Assembly (NCBI GenBank): GCA_013154135.1
Contig: JAADDB010000282.1
Location: 1-34,319, forward strand
Origin: Chloroflexota bacterium
GTDB taxonomy: Bacteria; Chloroflexota; Anaerolineae; JAADDB01
Length of the DNA stretch: 34,319 nt
Reading direction: 5' to 3'
Part shown: positions 1,355-34,319 of the stretch, piece after piece
How positions within the stretch are numbered: position 1 is the stretch's first letter
Layout: every line of letters starts with the position of its first letter
Made by a program: the position numbers and the translations under genes
Notes under the pieces: model-generated
What the model saw: the letters and a program-made list of their open reading frames with translations, nothing else
What the model was told of the DNA's origin: nothing
Databases searched by the model: none

Positions 1355-2101
1355 ATGCACATCGACATTATCACGCTATTCCCTCACATGTTCCAAGGGC
1401 CCTTCGAGGAAGGGATTCTCCGGCGGGCCCGGGAAAAAGGGCTGTTGAGCATCGCGCTGCACGATTTGCGCGCCTTTGGTGTGGGGAAACACCGTCAGGT
1501 GGATGATGTGCCTTACGGCGGGGCCCCGGGGATGTTGCTCCGGCCTGAGCCCATTGTCGCCGCGGTGGAGAGTATTCTGGACAGGCCTGTGTTCCGCGGG
1601 GCGGATACCGCGGTGGAAGTGGAAACGCTGCCTCCCATCATCCTTTTGACCCCTCAGGGCCGACCGTTGACACAGGCGGTGGTGAAGGAGCTGGCCCGAC
1701 ACGACCGGCTTGTTCTCATTTGCGGGCGATACGAGGGGGTCGACGAACGGGTGCGGGAGTTTTTGGTGACGGATGAGATCTCCATTGGCGATTATGTGCT
1801 TTCGGGCGGGGAACTGGCCGCGATGGTCCTGGTGGATGCGGTGACTCGGGTGTTGCCGGGTGCGTTGGGGTATGAACGAGGGGCGGAGGAGGATTCCTTT
1901 GCCAGCGGGCTTCTGGAAGGGCCGCAGTACACCCGGCCTCCTGAGTTCCGGGGGCGACAGGTGCCGGATGTGCTCCTTTCCGGTCACCATGAGCGCATTG
2001 CGGCCTGGCGCCGGGACCAGGCCCTCAAGCGCACTCGCGAACGCCGCCCGGATTTGCTGGAAAAGCGCACATCTTCAGAAGACCCCTCTTCCGGGGAATG
2101 A
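1355..2101 (+). CDS. trmD: tRNA (guanine37-N1)-methyltransferase
   Basis: N-terminus [13 protein letters not shown], plus [11 protein letters not shown] and [10 protein letters not shown]...[12 protein letters not shown], all typical of TrmD. SD GAGGAGG lies 5 nt upstream and overlaps the TGA stop of the preceding gene. Confidence 0.97.
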
Positions 2102-2205
2102 CCGCTCGGTAAATCCCCAAGCGGCGGGTTAATACGCCTGCCCGAAAAGGACTCAAGAGTCCGACGGAAGCCCCCCGGGGGCTCTGGTAGGACTCATAAC
2201 CAGAC

Positions 2206-2358
2206 GAGCATCGCCACAGCCGAGCCGAGATGGGCGCTCCCGCCCCTCTTACTCGTTACTTGTTATGCGTTAAGCTCTTCGTCCATCCCGGCCGACCTCC
2301 CCCTTCAGCCAACCCCCTTAATCGTTACTCATTAATCGTCAATCGTTTTGGTAATCGG
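2206..2358 (+). repeat. intergenic ~150-nt repeat element, copy 1 (two 7-nt-periodic TCGTTAC/TAATCGT blocks)
   Basis: About 90% identical by eye to 2488-2636 over the first ~120 nt (gagcatcgccacagcc...ctcttactcgttac...catcccggccgacctc...cccttaatcgt). Heptamer blocks at 2248-2274 and 2318-2358. Confidence 0.85.
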
Positions 2359-2408
2359 CCCTCACTCCACCCCTCGGGGGTTGGCGGGAAAAGCTCGCAG
2401 GCATTTCG

Positions 2409-2444
2409 CCCCTCCTCTCTCCCAATGCTGGGAGAGAGGAGGGG
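2409..2444. other. perfect 16-bp stem / 4-nt loop hairpin between the two tandem repeat copies
   Basis: cccctcctctctccca-atgc-tgggagagaggagggg. No flanking T-run on either strand. Confidence 0.8.
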
Positions 2445-2487
2445 GCCAAGGACGTTATGCGAGACACGGGTGGAAGTGCATGACCGG

Positions 2488-2636
2488 CCGAGCATCGCCA
2501 CAGCCGGGCCGAGATTGGCGCTCCCGCCCCTCTTACTCGTTACTCGTTATGCGTTAGACCTCACCCATCCCGGCCGACCTCGCCCTTCAGCCACCCCCCT
2601 TAATCGTCAATCGTTAATCGTTACTCCTTACTTCCC
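2488..2636 (+). repeat. intergenic ~150-nt repeat element, copy 2
   Basis: Starts 282 nt after copy 1. Heptamer blocks at 2531-2557 and 2600-2636. Ends 4 nt before the stop of the convergent beta-helix gene. Confidence 0.85.
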
Positions 2637-2640
2637 CCCC

Positions 2641-3816
2641 TCAATACACCACCGGCACATACCCGCGCTTCTGCAGCACGCCGGACGGGACATACTCGTA
2701 AGCCCCGATGTCGCACCTGCGCCGGCCATCGCCGTCCCCATCCCAGCGGCCCATGCCCCGCTGATCCGTGGGTGGACACACGGCGTCATCCCCCGCGTCG
2801 ATGGCCGGACTTCCCTGCCGCAGCGCGTGGGTCTCCCCCAGGCCCCCGTTGTGCGCGAGGGCCGCGAGTTGGGGGTCCGTGTTCGTCACATCCGTGCTGT
2901 GCGTCAACCCACACGTATTCCCCTTCTCCAGATTGTGGCCCTGGGACACCACACTCCCCGCCCCTCGACACTCGCCCAAAATCAACGTATTCCGCAGCGT
3001 AACCATCCCATCGACGTACAAATCGATCATGCGATGTGCCGGGGAAGACACCGTATTATTCGCCAGCGTCACATTCGTCAGGCGGAGCGTGCCATCGTTA
3101 TCGATGCCGCCCCCACCGTAGGTGGACGCGTTCCCGCTGATCGTCACATTGACCAGGTCCGCGGTGGTACCGCCCTGCACCCGAAGCGCGCCGGCCAGGC
3201 CACTGGTCAGCGCGCGGTTGCGGGCCAGCGTCACATTGCGTAAATACACCCTCCCCGACGCCCGGATGCCCCCGGTGGTGTACGACGCCACATTCTCCAC
3301 CACCGCGCTGTTCGTCATCGTCAGCACCCCACTGGAGGAAATCCCACCTTCCGATCCCTCATTGTGCTCAACAATCACATGGTCGAGCACCAGCGTCCCC
3401 CAGTTGACAATTCCCCCGGCCCAATCCGGCGAATCCGTCTTCCCGTTGCGGATGGTCATGTTCCGGAGGGTCACAAAGGCCTCGCTGAAAACGGTGAAGA
3501 CCGTGTGCTCCTTCTTGCCGTCGATAATCGTCCGGTTGGGGCCCGCGCCGATGAGCGTGACCCGATTACCGAGCACATTGGTCTCCCGGAAGACCCCCGG
3601 GCCGATGTGAATCGTCCCGACCGCGTCGGCTTTGTCATACGCGGCCCGGATGGTGCGGCACGCGGTCGCCCAGGATCGACAATCGTTCGTGTCCTTCCCC
3701 CACGTGGCCACATACCAGTCAGACCCCGTGCCCGCCACCGCGCGCGGGGCCATCATCATCCCCCACAGCAGTAGCAGAACAGCCACCCCTGCCACATACG
3801 TGATCACACGCCTCAT
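2641..3816 (-). CDS. secreted right-handed parallel beta-helix protein (choice-of-anchor-Q-like C-terminus)
   Basis: Signal peptide MRRVITYVAGVAVLLLLWGMMMAPRAVA. Repetitive N/G/T-rich beta-helix turns. C-terminal DQRG...CDIGAYEY motif. SD AAGGAGG lies 6 nt before ATG 3816, so the ORF-track start 3858 is probably an over-extension. Confidence 0.8.
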   Translation of the reverse strand: MRRVITYVAGVAVLLLLWGMMMAPRAVAGTGSDWYVATWGKDTNDCRSWATACRTIRAAYDKADAVGTIHIGPGVFRETNVLGNRVTLIGAGPNRTIIDGKKEHTVFTVFSEAFVTLRNMTIRNGKTDSPDWAGGIVNWGTLVLDHVIVEHNEGSEGGISSSGVLTMTNSAVVENVASYTTGGIRASGRVYLRNVTLARNRALTSGLAGALRVQGGTTADLVNVTISGNASTYGGGGIDNDGTLRLTNVTLANNTVSSPAHRMIDLYVDGMVTLRNTLILGECRGAGSVVSQGHNLEKGNTCGLTHSTDVTNTDPQLAALAHNGGLGETHALRQGSPAIDAGDDAVCPPTDQRGMGRWDGDGDGRRRCDIGAYEYVPSGVLQKRGYVPVVY

Positions 3817-3873
3817 GGCCCGCCTCCTTTCCCCGTTCTCGGTCCCATCACGATCCATCCGTCCCCCGCCCCC

Positions 3874-5792: not shown

Positions 5793-8177
5793 CTACTTTT
5801 GCACCATCGGCACGTACTGCCGACGCGCGGGCTGCCACAAGGACACACGCAAGGTATAGGGATGGTTGGGATCATGGGCGCCCTGATAGCCCACCACCCG
5901 CAGTCGGTACGTACCGGCCACGGACGCGACATGGAGAACACGCTCGGACGCGGTGCCCGATTCCTGGGAAATCTCCACGAGGGTCCCCGACGGGTCGTAC
6001 AAGAACAGGTCGTAATCGTCGGGCAGGTCTGTCAGGAGGGCCTCGATGACCCGGTCGACGCCCACGTTGAAGGCGTACCAGTCCTCATCGTCGGCCGTGC
6101 AGATGTAGCCCTTGATGGGCACATCGAACCCGATGCTCGCGGCACTGGCGAAGTCGTCGTTGGGTTCGTACTGCGCGTCCGCGCAGGATCCCGGGGTCGG
6201 CCGGGGCGTGGGCGAAGGCGTGGGGGTGGGATTGGACGCCGCGCTCACGGTGATCTGGAGGGCATACCCGCTGCTGGGATGCCAGTCCGACGCGGATCCC
6301 CCCATGACCCGCAGTTGGTACTTGCCCGTTGTGCGGGCCTCGTGGGTGATGGACTCGTCCGTGGTGCCCCCCTGCTGGGAGGTGCCCACCAGGTGACCGT
6401 TGGGGTCGAAGAGGGCGATGTCGTAATCCGCGGGCAGTTGGCTGAGCGCGATGTCGATGGTCTCCCCCGCCGCGGCTGGGATGAGGAACCAGTCCACGTC
6501 CCGACTGGGGCAGATGTACGCGTCGTCCTCGGTCTGGAACCCACCGAACTGGCGGAAGTCGTTCTCCGTGTCATACGCCGTGCTCGCGGTGTCATTGGGC
6601 TCGTAGGCGTCGTGAGCACAGACTACAGGGAGGACCGCCAGAGTGTAGCCGAAGTTATCGCCCACCTCGGGGATGCCGGGCACGCCCGGACTTCCCTGGT
6701 CCCACCTCTCCCCAGCACTATGCTGTACGCCCCGCTGATCGCCGTAGTAGACGTACACCGCGCCGCGGTCATCCCGGTACATGGGGGCACCCACGGCCAG
6801 GTCGTCGTAGCCGTCGCCGTTGAAGTCGCCGCTGGTCAGCGCCTGGCCGAAGGCCAAATCCCGTTCGAGGCGGTGCACCAACTGGTCCTGGGGACCGTAC
6901 AACCGGTTGGCCGATCCCTGGAGGATGTAGACGATGCCGGCATCGGGGTAAGTGCCGAGCACGTTCTCCCCGGGCGTGCCGATGGCCAGGTCATCATAGC
7001 CATCGCGGTTGAAATCCCCGGTAGCCAGCGCGGCCCCAAAGGTGTTGTAGGCCGCGGCCCGTCCCCAAATGGCGGGCTTGTCCTGATCCCATATCTGGCT
7101 GTTCTCCGCGGTCAGGCCGTTACGCGACCCGTGGATGACTTGCACGGCCCCCGCGTCCTGCACGTTCCCCACGTCCTCATAGGGGATGCCGATGGCCAGG
7201 TCGTCGTAGGTATCGCTGTCAAAGTCGCCCACGGCCAGGGCCGCGCCGAAACTGTCCCCGGTTTCCGCGCCGCCGTCCATGTGAGGCTGGTCCTGGTGCC
7301 AGATTTGGGTCTGCGAGGCGTCAAGCCCCCGGTCGGAACCATAGATGACGACCACAGAACCCGCGGCCGGGTGTCCACCGGTGTCATCCCCCGGTACGCC
7401 GATGGCCAGGTCCGCGTAGCCGTCGTGGTCGAAGTCCCCCACGGCCAGGGCCGCGGCGAAGCGATGGCCGTGATAGTACCCGCTGGGATACCCGATGGAC
7501 GCGATGTCCCACCACTGGACGCGTCGGGTGTTCAGGCCCTGGGCCGATCCGTAGATGATCTCCACGCCCCCATCCTGTTTCGGTGGGTTGGTGGAAGTCA
7601 ATTCCGAGGGGTCACCGACGGCCAGGTCGTCATACCCGTCGTTGTCGAAGTCCCCCACGGCCAGGGCCGCGCCGTACTCCACGTTGTTGTCCGGGCGCAC
7701 GACCGGCGTGAGGATGGTGTCCTGATGCGCGGTGATGCCGACCGCGGCCCCGTAGAAGAGGTGCACGGATCCGGTGGTCCCATCGCCGGGCACGCCCACG
7801 GCCAGGTCGGGATACCCATCGCCGTTGAAGTCCCCGCTGACCACCGCGTCTCCGAAGTACGCGTCCTTTTGGGGTGACCCCTCCACGCCGGGCGCGCCCC
7901 GATCCCAGCCCTGGGCGTGGTTGCCCGTCAGGCCGCCGGGGGACCCGGGGATGATGTTGACCGCGCCCGCGTCCTGGATGTCCCGGATGTCCTCTTTGGG
8001 CACGCCCACGGCCAGGCTCTCGTACACGACGACCGGGGTGACCGCGTGGGAGCCGGATGTGTGTGGATTCAAACCGTCCCCCGCCCCCGCAGATGGAGCT
8101 CCCACCACGGTCACCAAAAGCCACAGGATGAAGATGCCTCGGATAAGACGCCTAACAGGCTGACGTTGTGTGTGCAT
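5793..8177 (-). CDS. secreted FG-GAP/VCBS repeat protein with two C-terminal pre-peptidase (PPC) domains
   Basis: Signal peptide. At least 6 FG-GAP repeats (GDFNGDGYPDLAVGVPG, GDFDNDGYDDLAVG, GDFDHDGYADLAIG and others). Two YEPND...D(V/E)DW(F/Y) PPC-type modules joined by a [13 protein letters not shown] linker. SD AAGGAGG lies 8 nt upstream. Confidence 0.88.
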   Translation of the reverse strand: MHTQRQPVRRLIRGIFILWLLVTVVGAPSAGAGDGLNPHTSGSHAVTPVVVYESLAVGVPKEDIRDIQDAGAVNIIPGSPGGLTGNHAQGWDRGAPGVEGSPQKDAYFGDAVVSGDFNGDGYPDLAVGVPGDGTTGSVHLFYGAAVGITAHQDTILTPVVRPDNNVEYGAALAVGDFDNDGYDDLAVGDPSELTSTNPPKQDGGVEIIYGSAQGLNTRRVQWWDIASIGYPSGYYHGHRFAAALAVGDFDHDGYADLAIGVPGDDTGGHPAAGSVVVIYGSDRGLDASQTQIWHQDQPHMDGGAETGDSFGAALAVGDFDSDTYDDLAIGIPYEDVGNVQDAGAVQVIHGSRNGLTAENSQIWDQDKPAIWGRAAAYNTFGAALATGDFNRDGYDDLAIGTPGENVLGTYPDAGIVYILQGSANRLYGPQDQLVHRLERDLAFGQALTSGDFNGDGYDDLAVGAPMYRDDRGAVYVYYGDQRGVQHSAGERWDQGSPGVPGIPEVGDNFGYTLAVLPVVCAHDAYEPNDTASTAYDTENDFRQFGGFQTEDDAYICPSRDVDWFLIPAAAGETIDIALSQLPADYDIALFDPNGHLVGTSQQGGTTDESITHEARTTGKYQLRVMGGSASDWHPSSGYALQITVSAASNPTPTPSPTPRPTPGSCADAQYEPNDDFASAASIGFDVPIKGYICTADDEDWYAFNVGVDRVIEALLTDLPDDYDLFLYDPSGTLVEISQESGTASERVLHVASVAGTYRLRVVGYQGAHDPNHPYTLRVSLWQPARRQYVPMVQK

Positions 8178-13833: not shown

Positions 13834-13883
13834 ATCGGCGAGAAAATCTCGCGACGATCAGCCGTCGGAGGTGTTGTTACTTA

Positions 13884-14029
13884 GATAAGTAAGGAGTAAC
13901 GATTGACGATTAACGATTAAGGGGATTCGGCGGGAGAGGGGATCGGCTTGGATGGGCGAGGTCTAACGCATAACGAGTAACGAGTAAGAGGGCGGGAGAC
14001 CATCATAAGCCGTGTGGGGTGATGCTCGG
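13884..14029 (-). repeat. intergenic ~150-nt repeat element, copy 3 (inverted relative to copies 1 and 2)
   Basis: Its reverse complement aligns with 2488-2636: ccgagcatc..., ctcttactcgttactcgttatgcgttagacctc identical, then ...ccccttaatcgt...gttactccttactt. Heptamer blocks at 13886-13922 and 13964-13990. Confidence 0.85.
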
Positions 14030-14236
14030 CCGTTCACGAACGGTAGTGGCGCACGGCTGTGCGCCCTGTTCAGCAGCCGGATGAATCCGCCTGCTGAACA
14101 GGAACCGTCCCTTCGGGACGGGGATACGTCGGCCAGGCGTCCACCCCGCGCCCCGAAGGGGCGCTCCCTGTTCAACGGGCCCATTCATTGGGCCGCAACT
14201 GAGCCCGAGGGTTCAGCCCCGGGCTACCGCACATGA
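14029..14236. other. cluster of at least 7 consecutive GC-rich hairpins (candidate structured RNA or REP-like array)
   Basis: Hairpins: ccgtt/aacgg; ggcgcac-ggct-gtgcgcc; ctgttcagcag...ctgctgaacag (11 bp plus inner cgga/tccg); ccgtccc-ttc-gggacgg; gcgcccc-gaa-ggggcgc; ggccc-attcatt-gggcc; agcccg...cgggct. The module (GC hairpin)-CCTGTTCA occurs twice. Confidence 0.6.
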
Positions 14237-14258
14237 CCACACATCGCCGTTGCCTGCC

Positions 14259-14310
14259 TTAATCGTCAATCGTTACTCGTTACTCGTTAGCTGGCCCCGT
14301 CCGCCGCCAA
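14259..14310 (+). repeat. short member of the heptamer repeat family (first of a direct pair)
   Basis: ttaatcgtcaatcgttactcgttactcgttagctggccccgtccgccgcc, repeated at 14366-14412. Confidence 0.8.
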
Positions 14311-14365
14311 TGGGGATTTTCTCTCGCCACCCCGGCATCGAAGGGCCATGCCGGCATTTAGCTCT

Positions 14366-14412
14366 TTAATCGTCAATCGTTACTCGTTACTTCACGGACC
14401 CGTCCGCCGCCG
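14366..14412 (+). repeat. short member of the heptamer repeat family (second of a direct pair)
   Basis: ttaatcgtcaatcgttactcgttacttcacggacccgtccgccgcc, 107 nt downstream of the first copy. Confidence 0.8.
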
Positions 14413-14462
14413 AGATACTACCAAATTCTGTCCGTCAAGCGAGGCCCGTGGGCTATCACCTA

Positions 14463-14497
14463 CAAAAAAGGGCCCCCTTGTTCCCAAGGAGGCCCTT
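14463..14497 (-). terminator. rho-independent terminator of the oxidoreductase operon
   Basis: On the minus strand: gggccucc-loop-gggggccc (8 bp with one G-U pair) followed by TTTTTTG, about 25 nt after the beta-subunit stop. Confidence 0.7.
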
Positions 14498-14521
14498 TGT
14501 GCATATCCGTGGTCGTGCCGA

Positions 14522-15493
14522 TCACGCCATGGCCAAATCTTCAAAAATGGGCGAAAGATCGGTCAACGTCACACCCTTCTCATCCGCAACCGGCCGCTTA
14601 GCCGGAGGTGCGTCGAAGTAATTCGGGATCCGCTGCTTCAACCGCTCCTCATAAGAGGAAACATTCCGGTTCACCAGGAAGACCCCCGTGGGAATGCGGT
14701 CACCCCACTCGTGCGCCTTCTCAATGAACTGGAGCAGCTTCGCGTCCACCGTCGCTTCATCCGCACCATCCGGGATCACCGGGTCGTACCCTTCCTTCTG
14801 CAAGTCATAAATGCGCGGCCGCCCAATGTCCTTGCCCGAGAACCACTCTTGCGTGTGCAAGTCGTTGTAAGTGGGGCAAGGTTGCAGGATATCCAAGAAG
14901 GACAGACCCGGATGCTCGATGGCCTGCATAATCAAGTCCACCAGACGCCGCACATCATACGCGTACCCCCGGCCGATCCACGTGTACCCCACGGTCATGG
15001 CCAACATGAGAGGGTTCACCGCGCCGTTCATGTTCGGCTCGGGAAGGCTCTTAGTCTGCAGGCCCAAGGGCAACGTCGGTCCTGCCTGTCCCTTGGTCAG
15101 GCCGTACACTTCGTTGTTGAACATGAGGTGGGTGAGATTGGTGTTCCGGCGCCCCGCACCCACGAAGTGCCCCGCGCCGATGGCCATGCTGTCCCCATCC
15201 CCGCTGACCACAATGACCCGCATCTCCGGGTTAGCCAACCGGATGCCCGTGGCATAAGTGAGGGGACGACCGTGCAGAGTGTGCACACCGTACGCGTTCA
15301 CGTGATATTGGGCCTTGCCGGAACAGCCGATACCACCGACCACCGCGACCAAATGTCGCGGGATCTGCAACTTAGCCAACGCCTGCTGGAGTGCGTTCAG
15401 AATACCGTAATCCCCGCACCCCGGGCACCAGTCAATGGGAAACGCTGTCTTATATGTCTTGGGCGTGATCTTGCCCTTAGTTGCCACTGCCAT
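14522..15493 (-). CDS. 2-oxoacid:ferredoxin oxidoreductase, beta (TPP-binding) subunit
   Basis: CPGCGDYGIL and GGIGCSG motifs, TPP-binding GDGD. SD GAGGAGGG lies 5 nt upstream, 13 nt after the alpha-subunit stop. Confidence 0.93.
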   Translation of the reverse strand: MAVATKGKITPKTYKTAFPIDWCPGCGDYGILNALQQALAKLQIPRHLVAVVGGIGCSGKAQYHVNAYGVHTLHGRPLTYATGIRLANPEMRVIVVSGDGDSMAIGAGHFVGAGRRNTNLTHLMFNNEVYGLTKGQAGPTLPLGLQTKSLPEPNMNGAVNPLMLAMTVGYTWIGRGYAYDVRRLVDLIMQAIEHPGLSFLDILQPCPTYNDLHTQEWFSGKDIGRPRIYDLQKEGYDPVIPDGADEATVDAKLLQFIEKAHEWGDRIPTGVFLVNRNVSSYEERLKQRIPNYFDAPPAKRPVADEKGVTLTDLSPIFEDLAMA

Positions 15494-15506
15494 TGGTTCC
15501 CTCCTC

Positions 15507-17450
15507 TTATTCCATCGGGTTGCGCACGATAATGCGCGGTTCTGCTTCGCCGCTGAGGATCTTCTTGAACGCGTCGTACAACGCCTCGCCGGAGAAGGGC
15601 CGTCCGCTGTACTTGAGGACCTGGTAGTCCACCGGCCGACACGCGGTCTCCCGCAGCAGACGGTCCAGATGCCCGGAGTACGTCAACTCCGCGAGGACCA
15701 GCGGTTCAGCGGAATCCAGATAGGGCTTCAACGGCTTAGCCGGGAAGGGCCACAACATGCGGATGTGCAGGAATCGAGTGGGGATCCCCTCCTTAGCCAG
15801 CCGTTCCATCGCGTCCAAGACGGCCCCTTTTGTGGAACCCCACCCGATGATGGTGAACGGGGCATCGGGGTCACCGTAGACCCGGAACTTCTCCTCCTCG
15901 GGGATCTCCGCGCAGGCCGTCTCCAGCTTGCGCATGCGCTTTTCCATCATGCCCTCCCGGGTCACCGGGTCCTCGGTCACCCGACCGATTTCCGTGTGCT
16001 CCGCGCCCGTCAACCAGTGGGTATGACCGGGCTGTCCGTGGAAGGGACGGGGCGAAATGCCCGATTCGGTCATCCGGAAGCGAGGGAAGGGAGGTGTCCC
16101 GTTCGCGTCTTCCACCGGCTCGGCCAGGATGCCCCGGTCAATGCGCACATTGGAGAGGTCGAAGATATCCACCGTCGCGGTGGCACTGGAGAGGGCCTTG
16201 TCCACCAGGTGGATGACCGGCATTTGATAGCGCTCCGCGTAGTTCAAGGACCGGGCCGCATCGTAGAAGGCCTCCTCCACATCCCCCGAGGCCAGGACGA
16301 TGCGCGGGAATTCGCCGTGTCCTCCGTGGACCGCGAAGAGCAGATCCGCCTGGTCCGTGCGCGTGGGCATACCCGTGGAGGGTCCGCCTCGCATGTAGTT
16401 GGTGACGACCACGGGGACTTCGTTGATGCCCGCCCAGCCCAGGGCTTCGGTCATCAAGGAAAGACCGGGCCCCGAGGTAGCCGTTGCCACACGAGCACCG
16501 GTGAGGGCCGCGCCCGCGGCCATGCCAATGGCCGAAAGCTCATCTTCCGTCTGCACGACGACCACGGACCCCATCTCCCCGTTGCGCAGGGGGAAGGTGC
16601 TGTGGGCTTCCAGGAACACACTCTCATCGGTGGCCGGGCTGATGGGGTAATACGTCTGCATCGTCAGGCCGCCGGCCAGTTTGCCCAAGGCCACAGCCTG
16701 GTTCCCGTTGAGCAGGAGGCGCTTGACCGGCTCCTTGGACACGTCCATCCGGAACTCGAAGTCCTCCGTGTCGAAGTTCGTGTGCACGTAGTCGTACGCC
16801 AAGTTCACGGCCTCGATGTTCAAATCGATGACCTTCTCCTTGCCCTTGAAGATCTTCTTGAGCCCGCGGATCACATATTCCGCGGGGAAGTCCAACAGGG
16901 CAGCGGAGATGGCCACGGCAATGGTGTTTAGCGTGCGGTCCGCAATCCCTTTCGGGATGCTCAAACGTTCGGCCAAGGCCTTTGTGATCTCGTCGTACGG
17001 CACGCCGTACGTCTGAACACCCCGCTTACGCGCGTCTTCCAACAAGCCCGCGCTGGTCAGGGGCAAGCCATGGGCTTCGAGAAAGGCTTTCAAATCCTCG
17101 CGCAACCGAGGATCGAGGAAGATCATGCGGTCCAGGGGGGTGTTTTCCGACTTGGTGTTGTAGATGATCGCGCCGCCCGGCACCACGGCCATGGCATGTC
17201 GCACCAGACTTTCGGCCTCAAAGGTCGTCAACAGGTCCACACTCTCCCGGTGGGAGGTCACCGGATGGTGGGCTACCCGGACGTCATAATAGCTATGGCG
17301 CCCTTTGATGTTGGAGTAGTACTCGCGGCGGCCGTAGACGTGCAGACCACCGATGGCGCACGCCCGTTGGAAAATGCCGGCCGCGGTGTCGACCCCGCTT
17401 CCCTGGGGGCCACCGACTCGCCACGCTAGTTCTTCTCGTTGTTTGACCAT
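15507..17450 (-). CDS. 2-oxoacid:ferredoxin oxidoreductase, alpha subunit (two-subunit OFOR type)
   Basis: N-terminus MVKQREELAWRVGGPQGSGVDTAAGIF and a full-length OFOR alpha pattern. ATG 17450 is preferred; the ORF-track start 17672 adds 74 non-conserved residues. Confidence 0.92.
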   Translation of the reverse strand: MVKQREELAWRVGGPQGSGVDTAAGIFQRACAIGGLHVYGRREYYSNIKGRHSYYDVRVAHHPVTSHRESVDLLTTFEAESLVRHAMAVVPGGAIIYNTKSENTPLDRMIFLDPRLREDLKAFLEAHGLPLTSAGLLEDARKRGVQTYGVPYDEITKALAERLSIPKGIADRTLNTIAVAISAALLDFPAEYVIRGLKKIFKGKEKVIDLNIEAVNLAYDYVHTNFDTEDFEFRMDVSKEPVKRLLLNGNQAVALGKLAGGLTMQTYYPISPATDESVFLEAHSTFPLRNGEMGSVVVVQTEDELSAIGMAAGAALTGARVATATSGPGLSLMTEALGWAGINEVPVVVTNYMRGGPSTGMPTRTDQADLLFAVHGGHGEFPRIVLASGDVEEAFYDAARSLNYAERYQMPVIHLVDKALSSATATVDIFDLSNVRIDRGILAEPVEDANGTPPFPRFRMTESGISPRPFHGQPGHTHWLTGAEHTEIGRVTEDPVTREGMMEKRMRKLETACAEIPEEEKFRVYGDPDAPFTIIGWGSTKGAVLDAMERLAKEGIPTRFLHIRMLWPFPAKPLKPYLDSAEPLVLAELTYSGHLDRLLRETACRPVDYQVLKYSGRPFSGEALYDAFKKILSGEAEPRIIVRNPME

Positions 17451-17801: not shown

Positions 17802-17834
17802 GGAGAACCCGGTTGGGTGGCGGGGACAAGGAGA

Positions 17835-17918
17835 CGAACGACGAACGACGACCGACGACCGACGAACGACGAACGACAACCGACCAACGACCAACGACGA
17901 CCGACCACCGACGAACGA
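17835..17918 (+). repeat. tandem array of 12 heptamers (CGAACGA/CGACCGA/CCAACGA), with no T on the plus strand
   Basis: Strict 7-nt register with invariant terminal CGA. About 95 nt (17834-17928) contain only A, C and G. Lies between the TATAAT box and ATG 17946. Confidence 0.9.
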
Positions 17919-17945
17919 CCACACCAAACTCTTTGGCAATGAGAT

Positions 17946-21549: not shown

Positions 21550-21653
21550 AAGTTCACCCCCACTTCTCTGTCACAGGAAGAACATCAGATTTGCTCGTTA
21601 TCAAAAGCTCTTTCACTTTTCCAAGCCGCCAGGTTTTGTCCAAAGTCCAATTG

Positions 21654-24002: not shown

Positions 24003-24025
24003 CTCAATAACCTACCCTTATGGGG

Positions 24026-24238
24026 AATAACGAGTAACAAGTAACGATTAACGATTAAATCTCCTCCCACACAGCCTCACCCCTCCAAGCCAACCTCGTC
24101 CTCCAACCAACCCCTTAATCGTTAATCGTCACTCCTCAATCGTTACTCCTCCCACACAATCTCGCCCCTCCAAGCCAACCTCGCCTTTCCCCTTAATCGT
24201 TAATCGTTACTCCTTAATCGTTACTCCAATCGTTACTC
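24026..24238. repeat. compound heptamer-repeat locus filling the whole S8/HEAT intergenic gap
   Basis: One GTAACGA-orientation block (~24026-24058) faces two TCGTTAC-orientation blocks (~24115-24149 and ~24193-24238). gtaacgattaacgattaa has an exact inverted partner ttaatcgttaatcgttac. An ~86-nt tandem unit ctcctcccacaca..cccctccaagccaacctcg occurs twice. Coordinates are +/-1. Confidence 0.85.
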
Positions 24239-31347: not shown

Positions 31348-31419
31348 ATCAAGTGGGCGCCAGACGGTCGGCCATGACATCCGCCCGGCCTTGCCCCTTC
31401 TCCCAAGGAGGGAATATCG

Positions 31420-31428
31420 TGATAGAAT
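31420..31428 (+). promoter_or_regulatory. candidate extended -10 promoter (TGaTAGAAT) for the arginase operon
   Basis: TG-n-TAGAAT with no convincing -35. Would give a ~210-nt leader containing a heptamer block. Confidence 0.25.
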
Positions 31429-31602
31429 GGAGGGGTGACGCGAGGCAGGGGGTTGGGTGAAAGAGCGGGGAAGGGATAGGTCTTCCCTATTTTCCCACCT
31501 CCGAGGCGAGCTGTTTTTTGTGGGCGCCCCACCAAGGTGCGGACCCGTCCGCGGCCAAGGGGAACTTTCTCTGACCCGCTCGGCGTCGAAGGGCCATCCC
31601 TC

Positions 31603-31630
31603 TTAATCGTCAACCGTTACTCCTTACTTC
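31603..31630 (+). repeat. heptamer-family block directly abutting the arginase SD
   Basis: cttaatcgtcaaccgttactccttacttcc followed by AGGAGG-caaact-ATG. Same ...gttactccttacttcc end as element copy 2. Confidence 0.75.
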
Positions 31631-33237: not shown

Positions 33238-34224
33238 ATGAGACGGGGATACGTGGTCGCCTGGGGAATCCTCATCCTCTTCCTGATGATGACCGGATGT
33301 GGCCGCGTCATCACCCGGCCCACACCCCTGCCCCCCACCCCAACGCCCACGGTCACGCCGACGCCGACTCCCACACGTCGGCCCGCGACACCCACCCCCC
33401 GTCCTTACACGCCTCCTCCCACGCCGACGCCCACAGCTACGCCCACGCCCCTCATCTACACCATCCAGAAGGGGGATAACCTCATCAGCATTGCCCGACG
33501 CTTTGGCGTCAGTGTCCAGGCCTTGCAGGACGCCAACGGGATTGTGGACCCACGGCGATTGCAGATCGGGCAGCCCCTGGTCATCCCCGTCGGCGGGGAG
33601 GTGAAAGGGACGCCCACGCCCACGCCCACCCCTATCCCACTGCACATCCAGGGACTCTACGTCCGCCCAACGCGGTTGGGGGATGTGTGGATCTTGGGAG
33701 AGGTGGTGAACACCAGCGGGATGGATGTGGAACAGGTGCAGGTGGAGGGCTCCCTCCTGGATGAGCACGAGCGCGTGTTGGCCGTGGCCCACGCGCGGGC
33801 TATTTTGGACTTTCTTCCCGCGGGGGAACGAGCTCCCTTCGCGCTGCGCTTTCGGGATGCCCCCTCGTCCTTCACCTCCTATCAGGTGACGGTCCACCAA
33901 GCCTTGCCCGGCTTTGTGGGCGGGTATTATCTGGACCTGAGGGCCGAGGAGGTGCAAGGGGAGGGGGAAGGGTATCACACGTATTTTCTCGATGGGCTCG
34001 TGCGCAATGTGGGAGATGCGGATGTGGTGGGGGTTGTGGTGGTGGCTACGCTGTACGATGCGCAACAGCGGGTCGTGGGCATTCGCAAGGGAGCGCCTGT
34101 ACACAATGTCATCCCGCCGGGGGGAACGACCCCGTTCCACCTGGAGATCCAACTCCTGGGCGGACCTGTGAAAACTTGGCGCATCGTGGTCCAAGGCCAC
34201 AGGCCGGTGGAAAGTAACGATTAG
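33238..34224 (+). CDS. LysM-domain lipoprotein with PT-rich linkers and two FxLYD-like beta domains
   Basis: Lipobox LMMTGC. LysM domain YTIQKGDNLISIARRFGVSVQALQDANGI...GQPLVIP. PTPTP linkers. VVVATLYDAQQRVVG resembles the FxLYD motif. The last codons and the stop lie inside a heptamer block. Confidence 0.85.
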   Translation: MRRGYVVAWGILILFLMMTGCGRVITRPTPLPPTPTPTVTPTPTPTRRPATPTPRPYTPPPTPTPTATPTPLIYTIQKGDNLISIARRFGVSVQALQDANGIVDPRRLQIGQPLVIPVGGEVKGTPTPTPTPIPLHIQGLYVRPTRLGDVWILGEVVNTSGMDVEQVQVEGSLLDEHERVLAVAHARAILDFLPAGERAPFALRFRDAPSSFTSYQVTVHQALPGFVGGYYLDLRAEEVQGEGEGYHTYFLDGLVRNVGDADVVGVVVVATLYDAQQRVVGIRKGAPVHNVIPPGGTTPFHLEIQLLGGPVKTWRIVVQGHRPVESND

Positions 34225-34240
34225 AGTAACGATTAACCCA
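34213..34240 (-). repeat. heptamer-family block (GTAACGA orientation) overlapping the LysM gene stop
   Basis: aaGTAACGATTAGAGTAACGATTAAccc. The TAG stop (34222-34224) is part of the repeat. Confidence 0.7.
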
Positions 34241-34257
34241 GATTTTGCGCAATCAGC

Positions 34258-34286
34258 GGGCGAAGCACGAAAAACGCCCTTGTTTT
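34258..34286 (+). terminator. weak candidate intrinsic terminator after the LysM gene
   Basis: gggcg-11 nt loop-cgccc followed by TTGTTTT. The stem is only 5 bp. Confidence 0.3.
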
Positions 34287-34319
34287 GGCACCTTACCAAC
34301 TGAACCCGAAATGCTTTAT

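Follow-up and report, generated by a model that had tools for sequence, protein, structure and literature searches.

What occupies the gap between trmD (1355-2101, plus strand) and the convergent beta-helix gene (2641-3858, minus strand) in contig JAADDB010000282.1? The contig, 34,319 nt long and analysed at its full length (the window), belongs to a Chloroflexota metagenome-assembled genome (MAG; NCBI 'Chloroflexota bacterium'), and its 539-nt trmD gap holds two similar sequences built largely of head-to-tail heptamers such as TTACTCG and TTAATCG. They are adjacent copies of a mosaic repeat of this uncultured bacterium, one that is non-coding, species-specific and present in high copy number. 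The repetitive DNA is of a sort known from bacteria, but the family is new, with heptamer arrays set, in Chloroflexota, in a mosaic like that of the bacterial interspersed mosaic elements (BIMEs) or BOX elements. The reading that we prefer, with a probability of about 0.55, is a heptamer array like the short tandemly repeated repetitive (STRR) sequences, packaged in a BIME/BOX-like mosaic repeat, with turnover by slippage and recombination between copies and with effects that depend on context.

Four of the window's proteins have NCBI accessions of this MAG (TrmD, NPA91705.1; acyl-CoA carboxylase beta, NPA91713.1; arginase, NPA91728.1; ECF ATPase, NPA91727.1). Same or near-identical populations were represented by three independent assemblies: JGI 3300005095 (contigs L001 and L163), ENA ERZ27262658 (L002, L154 and L162) and JGI 3300026531, here Ga0256835 (L117-L153 and L164). 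A family profile (A2) was made from an alignment of 22 full copies and used in nhmmer searches, which covered ~170 kb of the population's DNA.

Two composite elements in the trmD gap

The first-pass annotation had described two repeats of ~150 nt, ~90% identical and starting 282 nt apart, each with two blocks in a strict 7-nt register. Identity and spacing agree with the direct-repeat families D9 (2195-2272 and 2479-2556, 92% identical, offset 284) and D5 (2283-2347 and 2565-2629, 88% identical, offset 282), and the register was recovered both in the sequence and by Tandem Repeats Finder (TRF), with period-7 rows starting at 2533, 2600, 13897, 13971, 14259, 14362, 17833, 24028, 24115 and 24193. 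The repeat is real but larger than described: the cores measure ~165 nt and carry hairpin modules on their left, and copy B in its long form extends to ~280 nt (Table 1).

The stretch 2355-2636, copy B plus its left module, has counterparts at two further loci (L126, L127; 87% identity), and this module encloses a perfect 36-nt hairpin, CCCCTCCTCTCTCCC-AATGC-TGGGAGAGAGGAGGGG, at 2409-2444. The left module of copy A has its equivalents in AAGCCCCCTTCGGGGGCT hairpins, which precede many copies elsewhere. Because the left modules differ and the long form of copy B recurs at other loci, A and B are, to judge from their sequences, neighbours of different subtypes and no simple tandem duplication. 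Copy B ends, on its right, at a distance of 7 nt from the beta-helix stop codon (2641).

Table 1. Position of the composite elements, their parts and related arrays in the window.
Feature	Position	Strand	Evidence and remarks
GC-rich hairpin module AGCCC-CCCGG-GGGCT	2169-2183	+	Left of copy A; sequence
Copy A, composite element	2188-2351	+	nhmmer E=2.3e-50; 22-copy alignment; D5, D9
Copy A, heptamer block 1	2249-2272	+	TTACTCG TTACTTG TTATGCG TTA; after leader 1
Copy A, heptamer block 2	2318-2345	+	TTAATCG TTACTCA TTAATCG TCAATCG; after C-rich leader 2
Left module, long form of copy B	2355-2472	+	L126 and L127 match 2355-2631 at 87% over 275-278 nt
Copy B, composite element	2473-2636	+	nhmmer E=4.2e-50
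Copy B, heptamer blocks	Block 1, 2533-2556; block 2, 2600-2634	+	Repeat and gene map
Copy C, full inverted composite element	13881-14042	-	nhmmer E=1e-43; L151 orthologue
Partial element E	14256-14393	+	Arrays 14256-14291 and 14364-14393; repeats D13, I12, I19; profile
Variant array, (GACGAAC) x 12.4	17833-17919	+	TRF period 7, score 111; divergent gap between POR-alpha and PMT_2 glycosyltransferase genes
Element cluster D, three arrays	24021-24238	both	Fills the 234-nt gap from S8 peptidase stop to HEAT-repeat gene start; D11, I5, I8; profile
Partial element F	31485-31630	+	Module 31541-31600 and array 31603-31630; profile
Truncated array	34213-34240	-	I13; two heptamers

Module order and composition

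The element consists of two related units, with a third at some loci (L119, L123). Each unit has a C-rich leader of ~45-55 nt followed by 3-5 degenerate heptamers of the pattern T-N-A-N-T-C-N (TTAATCG, TCAATCG, TTACTCG, TTACTCC, TTATGCG). Across 41 copies the modules kept a fixed order: a GC hairpin module of variable type; CATGACCGGCCGAGCATCGCCACAAACGGCC..GATGG..CTCCCGCCCCTC; block 1, TTACTCG TTACTCG TTATGCG TTA; a C-rich leader of ~44 nt, GRC(TC)TTCGCCCATCCCGGCCGACCTCGCCCTTCAGCCAACCCC; block 2, TTAATCG (TTACTCA) TTAATCG TCAATCG TTACTCN; and a C-run. Mean column identity was 80% in the alignment of 22 full copies, in which positions T1, A3, T5 and C6 of the heptamer were invariant throughout block 2. 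The element has a sharp right end, …CAATCGTTACTC(N) with the C-run after it. The left end is mosaic, one core being joined to differing hairpin modules (AAGCCCCCTTCGGGGGCT; GCCCGGGGCTGAACCCCCGGGC; the hairpin at 2409-2444; GTAGGGGCGGGTC..GACCCGCCCCTAC), among them GTAG-tagged palindromes such as GTAGGGGCGGGTCTGAGACCCGCCCCTAC. Read from the aligned copies, this arrangement shows that the heptamer blocks were copied along with a conserved ~165-280-nt composite and were not grown in place. The plus strand of the element contains 38% C versus 17% G overall, and leader 2 contains 56% C versus 14.5% G.

A dispersed and intergenic family

The dispersal that had been proposed from the window extends through the population. 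Three full and six partial profile matches lie in the window, further copies lie in the population contigs, and 77 matches were obtained over all the DNA searched. The 24-mer TTACTCGTTACTYGTTATGCGTTA, taken from block 1, matched 37 further contigs, all from one metagenome (Ga0256835) and one of them, L151, carrying the orthologue of window copy C. Most of these matches sit at contig ends, as expected, because the repeat breaks assemblies.

KTAACGA, the opposite-strand consensus of the first-pass annotation, occurred 23 times in the window against 3.0 expected, a count that none of 100 shuffles reached, and 22 of the 23 matches were intergenic. In-register arrays of three or more units formed ten rows (eight distinct arrays) against 0.05 in shuffles, all of them within the non-coding 11.8% of the window. 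Low-complexity sequence arising by chance, or microsatellites expanded independently in each gap, would be a scarcely credible source of counts so far above the shuffles; the order of the heptamer variants and of the non-repetitive leaders, kept across dozens of loci, refutes this reading. The sole point in favour of expansion in place is that 7-nt indels separate strains, which shows that slippage occurs.

Six gaps of the window carry the motif, rather than the seven or more counted at first, because the open reading frame (ORF) called at 14348-15532 on the plus strand is spurious, so that 13884-14029 and 14259-14412 share a single gap; this stretch belongs instead to the minus-strand gene POR-beta. 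All the other sites listed in the window proved real by TRF, repeat families and profile, the one first given as 31603-31630 being placed at 31593-31630. The array first placed at 17835-17918 as a variant of the family exists (17833-17919), although it shares with the family only the 7-nt period and a TCG/CGA core.

Stop codons and neighbouring genes

A gene was called to the right of 29 copies. It was convergent in 19 of them, and in 10 of these 19 its stop codon fell between -6 and +9 nt relative to the array end. Assuming uniform placement, the binomial probability of 10 flush contacts in 19 is 4e-11 to 4e-6 for per-copy chances of 0.03-0.1. The stop of the gene is supplied by the heptamer itself in L120, L131, L134 and L143, and likewise, in the window, for the S8 peptidase gene (TGA inside the last heptamer of cluster D, a TTACTCA unit) and the LysM gene (33238-34224; TAA in the first heptamer of the truncated array, a GTAACGA unit). 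The remaining 10 copies face co-directional genes at distances of 74-530 nt, and on the left the neighbour was divergent in 9 of the 15 copies with a called left gene.

On the complementary strand, TAA, TGA or TAG was present in 343 of 372 heptamer units, and because 7 = 1 mod 3, three successive heptamers stop all three frames. Since all frames are stopped, a gene that runs into the right end gains or loses only a few codons, and slippage by 7 nt is harmless.

These positions and the composition of the plus strand bear on the idea of a Rho-dependent terminator or insulator. The C-rich, G-poor strand would serve as a loading site like rut (Rho utilization) and block read-through, for example from trmD, antisense into the convergent gene. 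The strand is free of stable conserved structure, a UC dinucleotide recurs in every heptamer, and the C-rich strand runs into the 3' end of the convergent gene in the 19 copies just mentioned. Divergent left-hand genes, however, offer no obvious entering transcript, the ten copies that point at co-directional genes would silence them by termination, and canonical intrinsic terminators are present in the same gaps. A Rho-related role is thus considered very unlikely.

A strong sigma-70-like promoter directly follows several of the copies that face co-directional genes (window copy C, L136, L139 and L140). Copy C ends upstream of the acyl-CoA carboxylase beta gene, ~50 nt before its promoter-like TTGGCA-18-TATAAT (13833-13804 on the minus strand; scan score 11/12), and TTGACA-16-TATAAT was read from the sequence in L136. 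A function of the arrays as promoter UP elements was rejected, as the distance from array end to -35 box ranged from ~8 to 52 nt and the geometry was not fixed.

Two elements of the window stand before start codons. The inverted array of cluster D (24021-24058) lies 22 nt before the ATG of the HEAT-repeat gene, and the array of element F lies directly before the Shine-Dalgarno sequence (SD) AGGAGG and the arginase ATG (31644), 14 nt from the start codon. A promoter-like TTGCCC…TGATAGAAT with extended -10 was seen at 31391-31420, some 220 nt before the ATG of arginase; use of this promoter would put element F inside the 5' untranslated region (UTR) of the gene. As read from the sequence, the last heptamers of element F (CUCCU) can pair with the arginase SD (AGGAG).

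Variation between strains

The comparison of corresponding gaps in related assemblies, which the first-pass annotation had suggested, yielded indels of 7, 41, ~85-91, 139-141 and 282 nt, all in repeat-bearing gaps. Over ~14.6 kb, the window and L154 are 99.3-99.6% identical, except for a 2.6-kb block at 97.8% that spans repeat-bearing gaps, and every length difference between the two falls in such gaps. Between the S8 peptidase and HEAT-repeat genes they differ by 7 nt (one heptamer) and by ~85-91 nt (one unit), and a 41-nt indel lies at 21600; in the region 21550-21653, the longer allele gains a second CTCGTTA unit and an inverted-repeat arm (…TTTGGACAAAAG… / …CTTTTGTCCAAA…). About 139-141 nt, most of element F, are absent from L154, where the empty site GGTC-TTACTCC-CAGGAGG retains one heptamer. 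After the LysM stop, L154 has a full inverted composite element against two heptamers in the window. The last 85 nt of the window (34235-34319) had no match in L154 and matched the flank of an L137 element joined to an oppositely oriented array, which reflects either an inversion at arrays or a contig-end artefact.

The trmD gap of L002 is 282 nt shorter and contains a single copy whose left part resembles A and whose right part resembles B, the mark left by recombination between the two copies. Downstream of POR-beta, three near-identical populations showed three different continuations, diverging from the window in the element-rich gap (regions compared: window 14030-14300, L162 4960-5520, L164 3150-4340, L151 2900-3281). 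The ENA contig leaves the window at array E1 downstream of POR-beta and continues into an ABC transporter. In the Ga0256835 contig, which diverges at the start of the element core, the E arrays are separated by 164 additional nt, and a paralogous (80%) element and another gene come next. The join in the window, at 14030-14196, falls within a ~166-nt module common to L151 and L164, at a point where the JGI assembly is broken. Between strains, then, length changes by a heptamer, a unit or a whole element.

Presence and absence of this kind, together with the shape of the ends, are what might be expected of a non-autonomous element moved in trans by an HUH-type single-strand transposase, either a REP-associated tyrosine transposase (RAYT; REP, repetitive extragenic palindrome) or one like those of IS200/IS605/IS91. 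Its precise end, …CAATCGTTACTC, would insert beside stop-codon-like targets and its other end would be imprecise. The right end is sharp and the left variable, there are no terminal inverted repeats, no clear target-site duplication was seen, ~139-141 nt of element F are present in one strain and absent in another, and paralogous copies are 80-90% identical, which would imply copy-and-paste spread. Many copies have beside them GTAG-tagged palindromes of the kind typical of RAYT substrates. This mobilisation nevertheless appears distinctly unlikely. No transposase gene was found, in a search that was not genome-wide; the L002 hybrid and the 85-nt unit changes resemble homologous recombination; the F junction is equally well explained by a deletion between short repeats; and the right end of the core has no subterminal hairpins.

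GTAG-tagged, GC-rich palindromes of REP type were located beside copies at L122 91-119, L123 150-178, L134 2382-2414 and L151 3039-3067, and in the window at ~14044-14066 (minus-strand reading GTAGTGGCGCACGGCTGTGCGCCC). Their presence suggests that the organism may have a RAYT-type system.

Inverted arrangements and heptamers in other genomes

Cluster D contains plus-strand leader-plus-array units of 85 nt (24075-24150 and 24162-24238), with repeats of the unit-2 type every 85 nt (D11). In the predicted minus-strand RNA fold of this gap, the first arrays pair with the last in a ~35-bp stem (z=-5.4), near whose base lie the S8 stop and the HEAT start. Element E lies a short way past the terminator of the POR operon (minus strand, 14491-14473). 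Between its arrays, which complement blocks 1 and 2 of copy C, stands a 60-nt module (14293-14352) sharing 80% identity with 31541-31600. Pairing of these arrays with those of copy C is predicted to be nested and to span ~560 nt (z=-8.1); the paired region lies between terminator and promoter and may be untranscribed.

A scan of genome contigs with the pattern TTAATCGTNAATCGT (14 specified bases) returned at least 114 loci in many phyla, the pattern being too unspecific, and among the matches listed TNAATCG arrays occurred in many phyla. A homology of the leaders to loci of other taxa was rejected, as only the heptamer arrays matched. Among the matches listed, other phyla repeatedly show hairpins of one architecture: stop, array, 20-45 nt, inverted array and ATG, with no obvious SD (L024 620-840; L036 4580-4760 and 7800-7970; L044 340-560; L101 3960-4150; L030 3560-3760; L060 2400-3060). 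The hosts were Acidobacteriota/Pyrinomonadaceae, Pseudidiomarina and Chloroflexaceae MAGs. In the Pyrinomonadaceae MAG, one such locus is apparently inside a ribosomal-protein (S10-type) operon, judged from translated N-termini, and in the Chloroflexaceae MAG such arrays stand between tRNA genes.

Anaerolineae bacterium S143_38 (WGAA01), another Chloroflexota MAG, carries serial blocks in a fixed order, (TAATGCG)n, ~45 nt, (TTAATCG)4, ~20 nt and (TTACTCG)4, with unrelated leaders (L025 5380-5760; L049 150-450 and 1280-1520). A conserved element upstream of an orthologous gene was considered for the HtrA-like protease that follows elements in both S143_38 and L125 (54-60% amino-acid identity). 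The pair was not counted as evidence, as the number of PDZ domains differs, the proteins are possible paralogues and the density of elements makes coincidence likely.

Recurrence of the same heptamer types in an Anaerolineae MAG with unrelated leaders is among the observations that would be explained if the blocks were a platform for an RNA-binding or single-stranded-DNA-binding protein, with one site per 7 nt and a post-transcriptional regulon as the outcome. Possible binders would be S1/Csp-type OB folds or a HutP/TRAP-like ring protein, reading the sense strand before SD/ATG and antisense (UAACGAN)n directly after stops. Ring proteins of this kind bind two clusters of spaced triplets, and two blocks of 3-5 units ~45 nt apart, as found here, have the layout of HutP sites. 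The invariant T1, A3, T5 and C6 of block 2 and the arrays 14 and 22 nt before start codons (elements F and D) also fit a platform, as do, in other phyla, arrays that stretch from the stop to the start codon with no obvious SD, a placement also reported for TAACTGA repeats (PMC4679880). The positions of the copies are heterogeneous, however, and those upstream of promoters or beyond terminators may be untranscribed. Copies occur in both orientations relative to neighbouring genes, the leaders are as conserved within the family as the arrays, presence and absence differ in near-identical strains, and no candidate protein was identified. A binding platform is considered rather unlikely.

Comparison with known repeats

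The first-pass annotation had found no terminal inverted repeats, no ORF and no transposase, which is correct for the trmD locus. Terminal inverted repeats of the kind found in miniature inverted-repeat transposable elements were absent within and at the ends of copies A, B and C, inverted arrays occurring only between separate elements, and an element of that kind was rejected; a protein-coding reading was rejected likewise, the core having no ORF. The first-pass annotation had not recognised a named family, and the searches made agree with it: a search of the window against Rfam (Rfam 15) gave no match at gathering thresholds and, at E<=1, only generic hairpins far below threshold, and a full-text search of the literature library for heptamer dimers returned no papers. 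A structured RNA was rejected for the core, with a consensus fold of -2.6 kcal/mol forward and -13 reverse (RNAalifold) and single-sequence z-scores of -1.4 to +0.8, no better than shuffles on either strand. The locus is not a CRISPR array, in which a constant repeat alternates with unique spacers of similar length, usually in the company of cas genes: the would-be spacers (the leaders) are conserved between loci, the would-be repeats are degenerate heptamer blocks, and no cas domains were found among the window ORFs scanned. Since the composite 24-mer was absent from IMG/VR, there is no phage link; the generic three-unit array occurred in only 7 viral contigs.

In REP/BIME sequences an imperfect palindrome of 20-40 nt, in most cases with a GTAG or CGTC tag, forms the unit. 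Like them and like REPINs, the family is high-copy, intergenic and a mosaic of short modules, is located in 3' UTRs and between convergent genes, and has GTAG-tagged GC-rich palindromes beside it. It differs in that its core is not palindromic and has no predicted structure, only the neighbouring modules being GTAG-tagged palindromes, and in that heptamer blocks are part of no described BIME. Since hairpin modules, a number of which are GTAG-tagged and resemble REPs, are joined to the composite, its kinship with BIME-type mosaics is closer than first assumed. The BOX elements of Streptococcus pneumoniae (boxA-(boxB)n-boxC) are modular intergenic sequences of ~100-300 nt in more than 100 copies, with no ORF, a variable number of internal units and copy numbers that differ between strains, and they are predicted to fold stably. 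Modularity, size, intergenic position, high copy number, variable internal unit number, lack of an ORF and strain differences in copy number are shared with them, whereas BOX sequence is unrelated and without heptamer periodicity, and the core here has no stable fold.

STRR sequences belong to heterocystous cyanobacteria, and their named units are CCCCAGT, TTGGTCA and similar. The Chloroflexota element matches neither these unit sequences nor the cyanobacterial host: its units are T-N-A-N-T-C-N, AT-rich and not G-rich. Its arrays are also degenerate, with unit variants in fixed order inside a ~165-280-nt composite copied whole. The likeness to STRR and other heptamer repeats lies in head-to-tail 7-nt arrays, usually of 2-6 copies, in many intergenic gaps and sometimes in inverted pairs, and in length variation between close relatives. 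The analogy with STRR that had been drawn is apt, as dispersed intergenic heptanucleotide arrays are a recognised class, of unexplained origin and role (PMC4679880, PMC4692102).

Dispersed heptamer arrays, known since the STRR reports, are the commonest long simple-sequence repeats in bacteria (PMC4679880, PMC4692102); a survey of heptamer simple-sequence repeats is that of Mrazek 2007, as cited in PMC4679880. GGGAATC heptamer repeats occur in Xanthomonas and Nostoc (PMC4692102), and TAACTGA direct repeats in marine Beggiatoaceae, some Cyanobacteria and Bacteroidetes (MacGregor 2015, PMC4679880). The latter often lie just upstream of start codons, also in ribosomal-protein operons, and have been proposed to bind S1, Csp or CsrA-type proteins or to have a role in rearrangement (PMC4679880). 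Like TAACTGA, the heptamer described here contains stop triplets and occurs in 2-6 copies, in intergenic DNA and with a patchy phylogenetic spread, TNAATCG arrays being similarly placed in other phyla. Unlike it, 5 of 7 positions match, and only on the strand opposite to that before start codons here; no composite element has been described around TAACTGA, and the commonest position here is flush with the stop of a convergent gene.

Proposed turnover of the repeat

If the family is an STRR-like array packaged in a BIME/BOX-like mosaic, replication slippage in the heptamer blocks would produce the 7-nt steps. Unequal or ectopic homologous recombination and gene conversion between copies would add, remove or swap units and elements, and sometimes rearrange their flanks. 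Mobilisation in trans by an HUH/RAYT-type enzyme may contribute, a step suggested because GTAG-tagged palindromes adjoin the element and one of its ends is sharp. Copies would probably survive where they are harmless, that is, flush at the 3' end of convergent genes, upstream of promoters or in short spacers, with the three-frame stops helping. Their effects would depend on context. A direct arrangement, such as A/B, would give an unstructured C-rich, G-poor segment, and an inverted arrangement, such as that between the S8 peptidase and HEAT-repeat genes, a ~35-bp stem whose base holds the stop of the gene before it and the start of the gene after it, and which could act as a processing or translational-coupling hairpin.

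Several observations weigh against this explanation. Flush contact with stop codons exceeds passive tolerance and may reflect targeted insertion or a function in the 3' UTR, and the several copies placed directly before SD/ATG or promoter-like sequence would also be explained by a regulatory role. The heptamer vocabulary shared with S143_38 despite unrelated leaders hints that the heptamers are recognised by something conserved. The pair of filled and empty sites at element F is a single one, with no clear target-site duplication and junctions that share only CTT or one TTACTCC heptamer, and no mobilising enzyme was found, a transposase not having been searched for genome-wide. Some strain differences, including the order downstream of POR-beta, could be assembly joins and not biology.

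The heptamer blocks might be the functional handle of an undescribed system common to several Chloroflexota, an idea that we consider improbable. The system would be either a stop-codon-targeting, HUH-mobilised, one-ended element (terminus …CAATCGTTACTC plus C-run) or a regulon of binding sites in 7-nt register that ties together dozens of 3' and 5' UTRs. Were it true, a heptamer vocabulary shared by lineages with unrelated leaders and the flush contact with stops would be signatures of machinery and not of neutral turnover, and a dedicated enzyme or binding protein, if one exists, would represent a novel regulatory or mobile-element system from a phylum that has received little study.

The family links heptamer arrays to a composite that can be copied and that has a single well-defined end. 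Together with the recurrent stop-codon contact and the measurable turnover at 99.3-99.6% gene identity, this makes the spread and tolerance of such arrays testable by comparative genomics. The repeats also break, and possibly mis-join, metagenomic assemblies of this lineage, with most copies at contig ends and gene order differing at arrays.

Other repeats of the organism

A second repeat family was observed in the same organism. It consists of 51-nt perfect palindromes (GTTTTGTGTGCGTGGTGGGCGGGC-TTC/GAA-GCCCGCCCACCACGCACACAAAAC) with stems of 23-24 bp, located at L120 3841-3891, L125 241-289 and 456-506, L136 149-199 and 423-473, L154 2173-2223 and 6941-6977, and L164 ~3440-3490. The stems vary among copies yet stay perfectly complementary (compensatory variation), and the flanks are conserved (GAAAGA and AGTTC, on the two sides). 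A degenerate half copy lies in the window at ~31497-31520.

Two sets of coding repeats in the window are unrelated to the heptamer element. Pro/Thr-rich low-complexity repeats of the CCCACG type are found at 288-486, in the M23 peptidase gene, and at 33331-33650, in the LysM gene, and seven ~200-nt repeats at 6771-8031 are ordinary coding repeats that encode the FG-GAP domains of a 794-aa protein.

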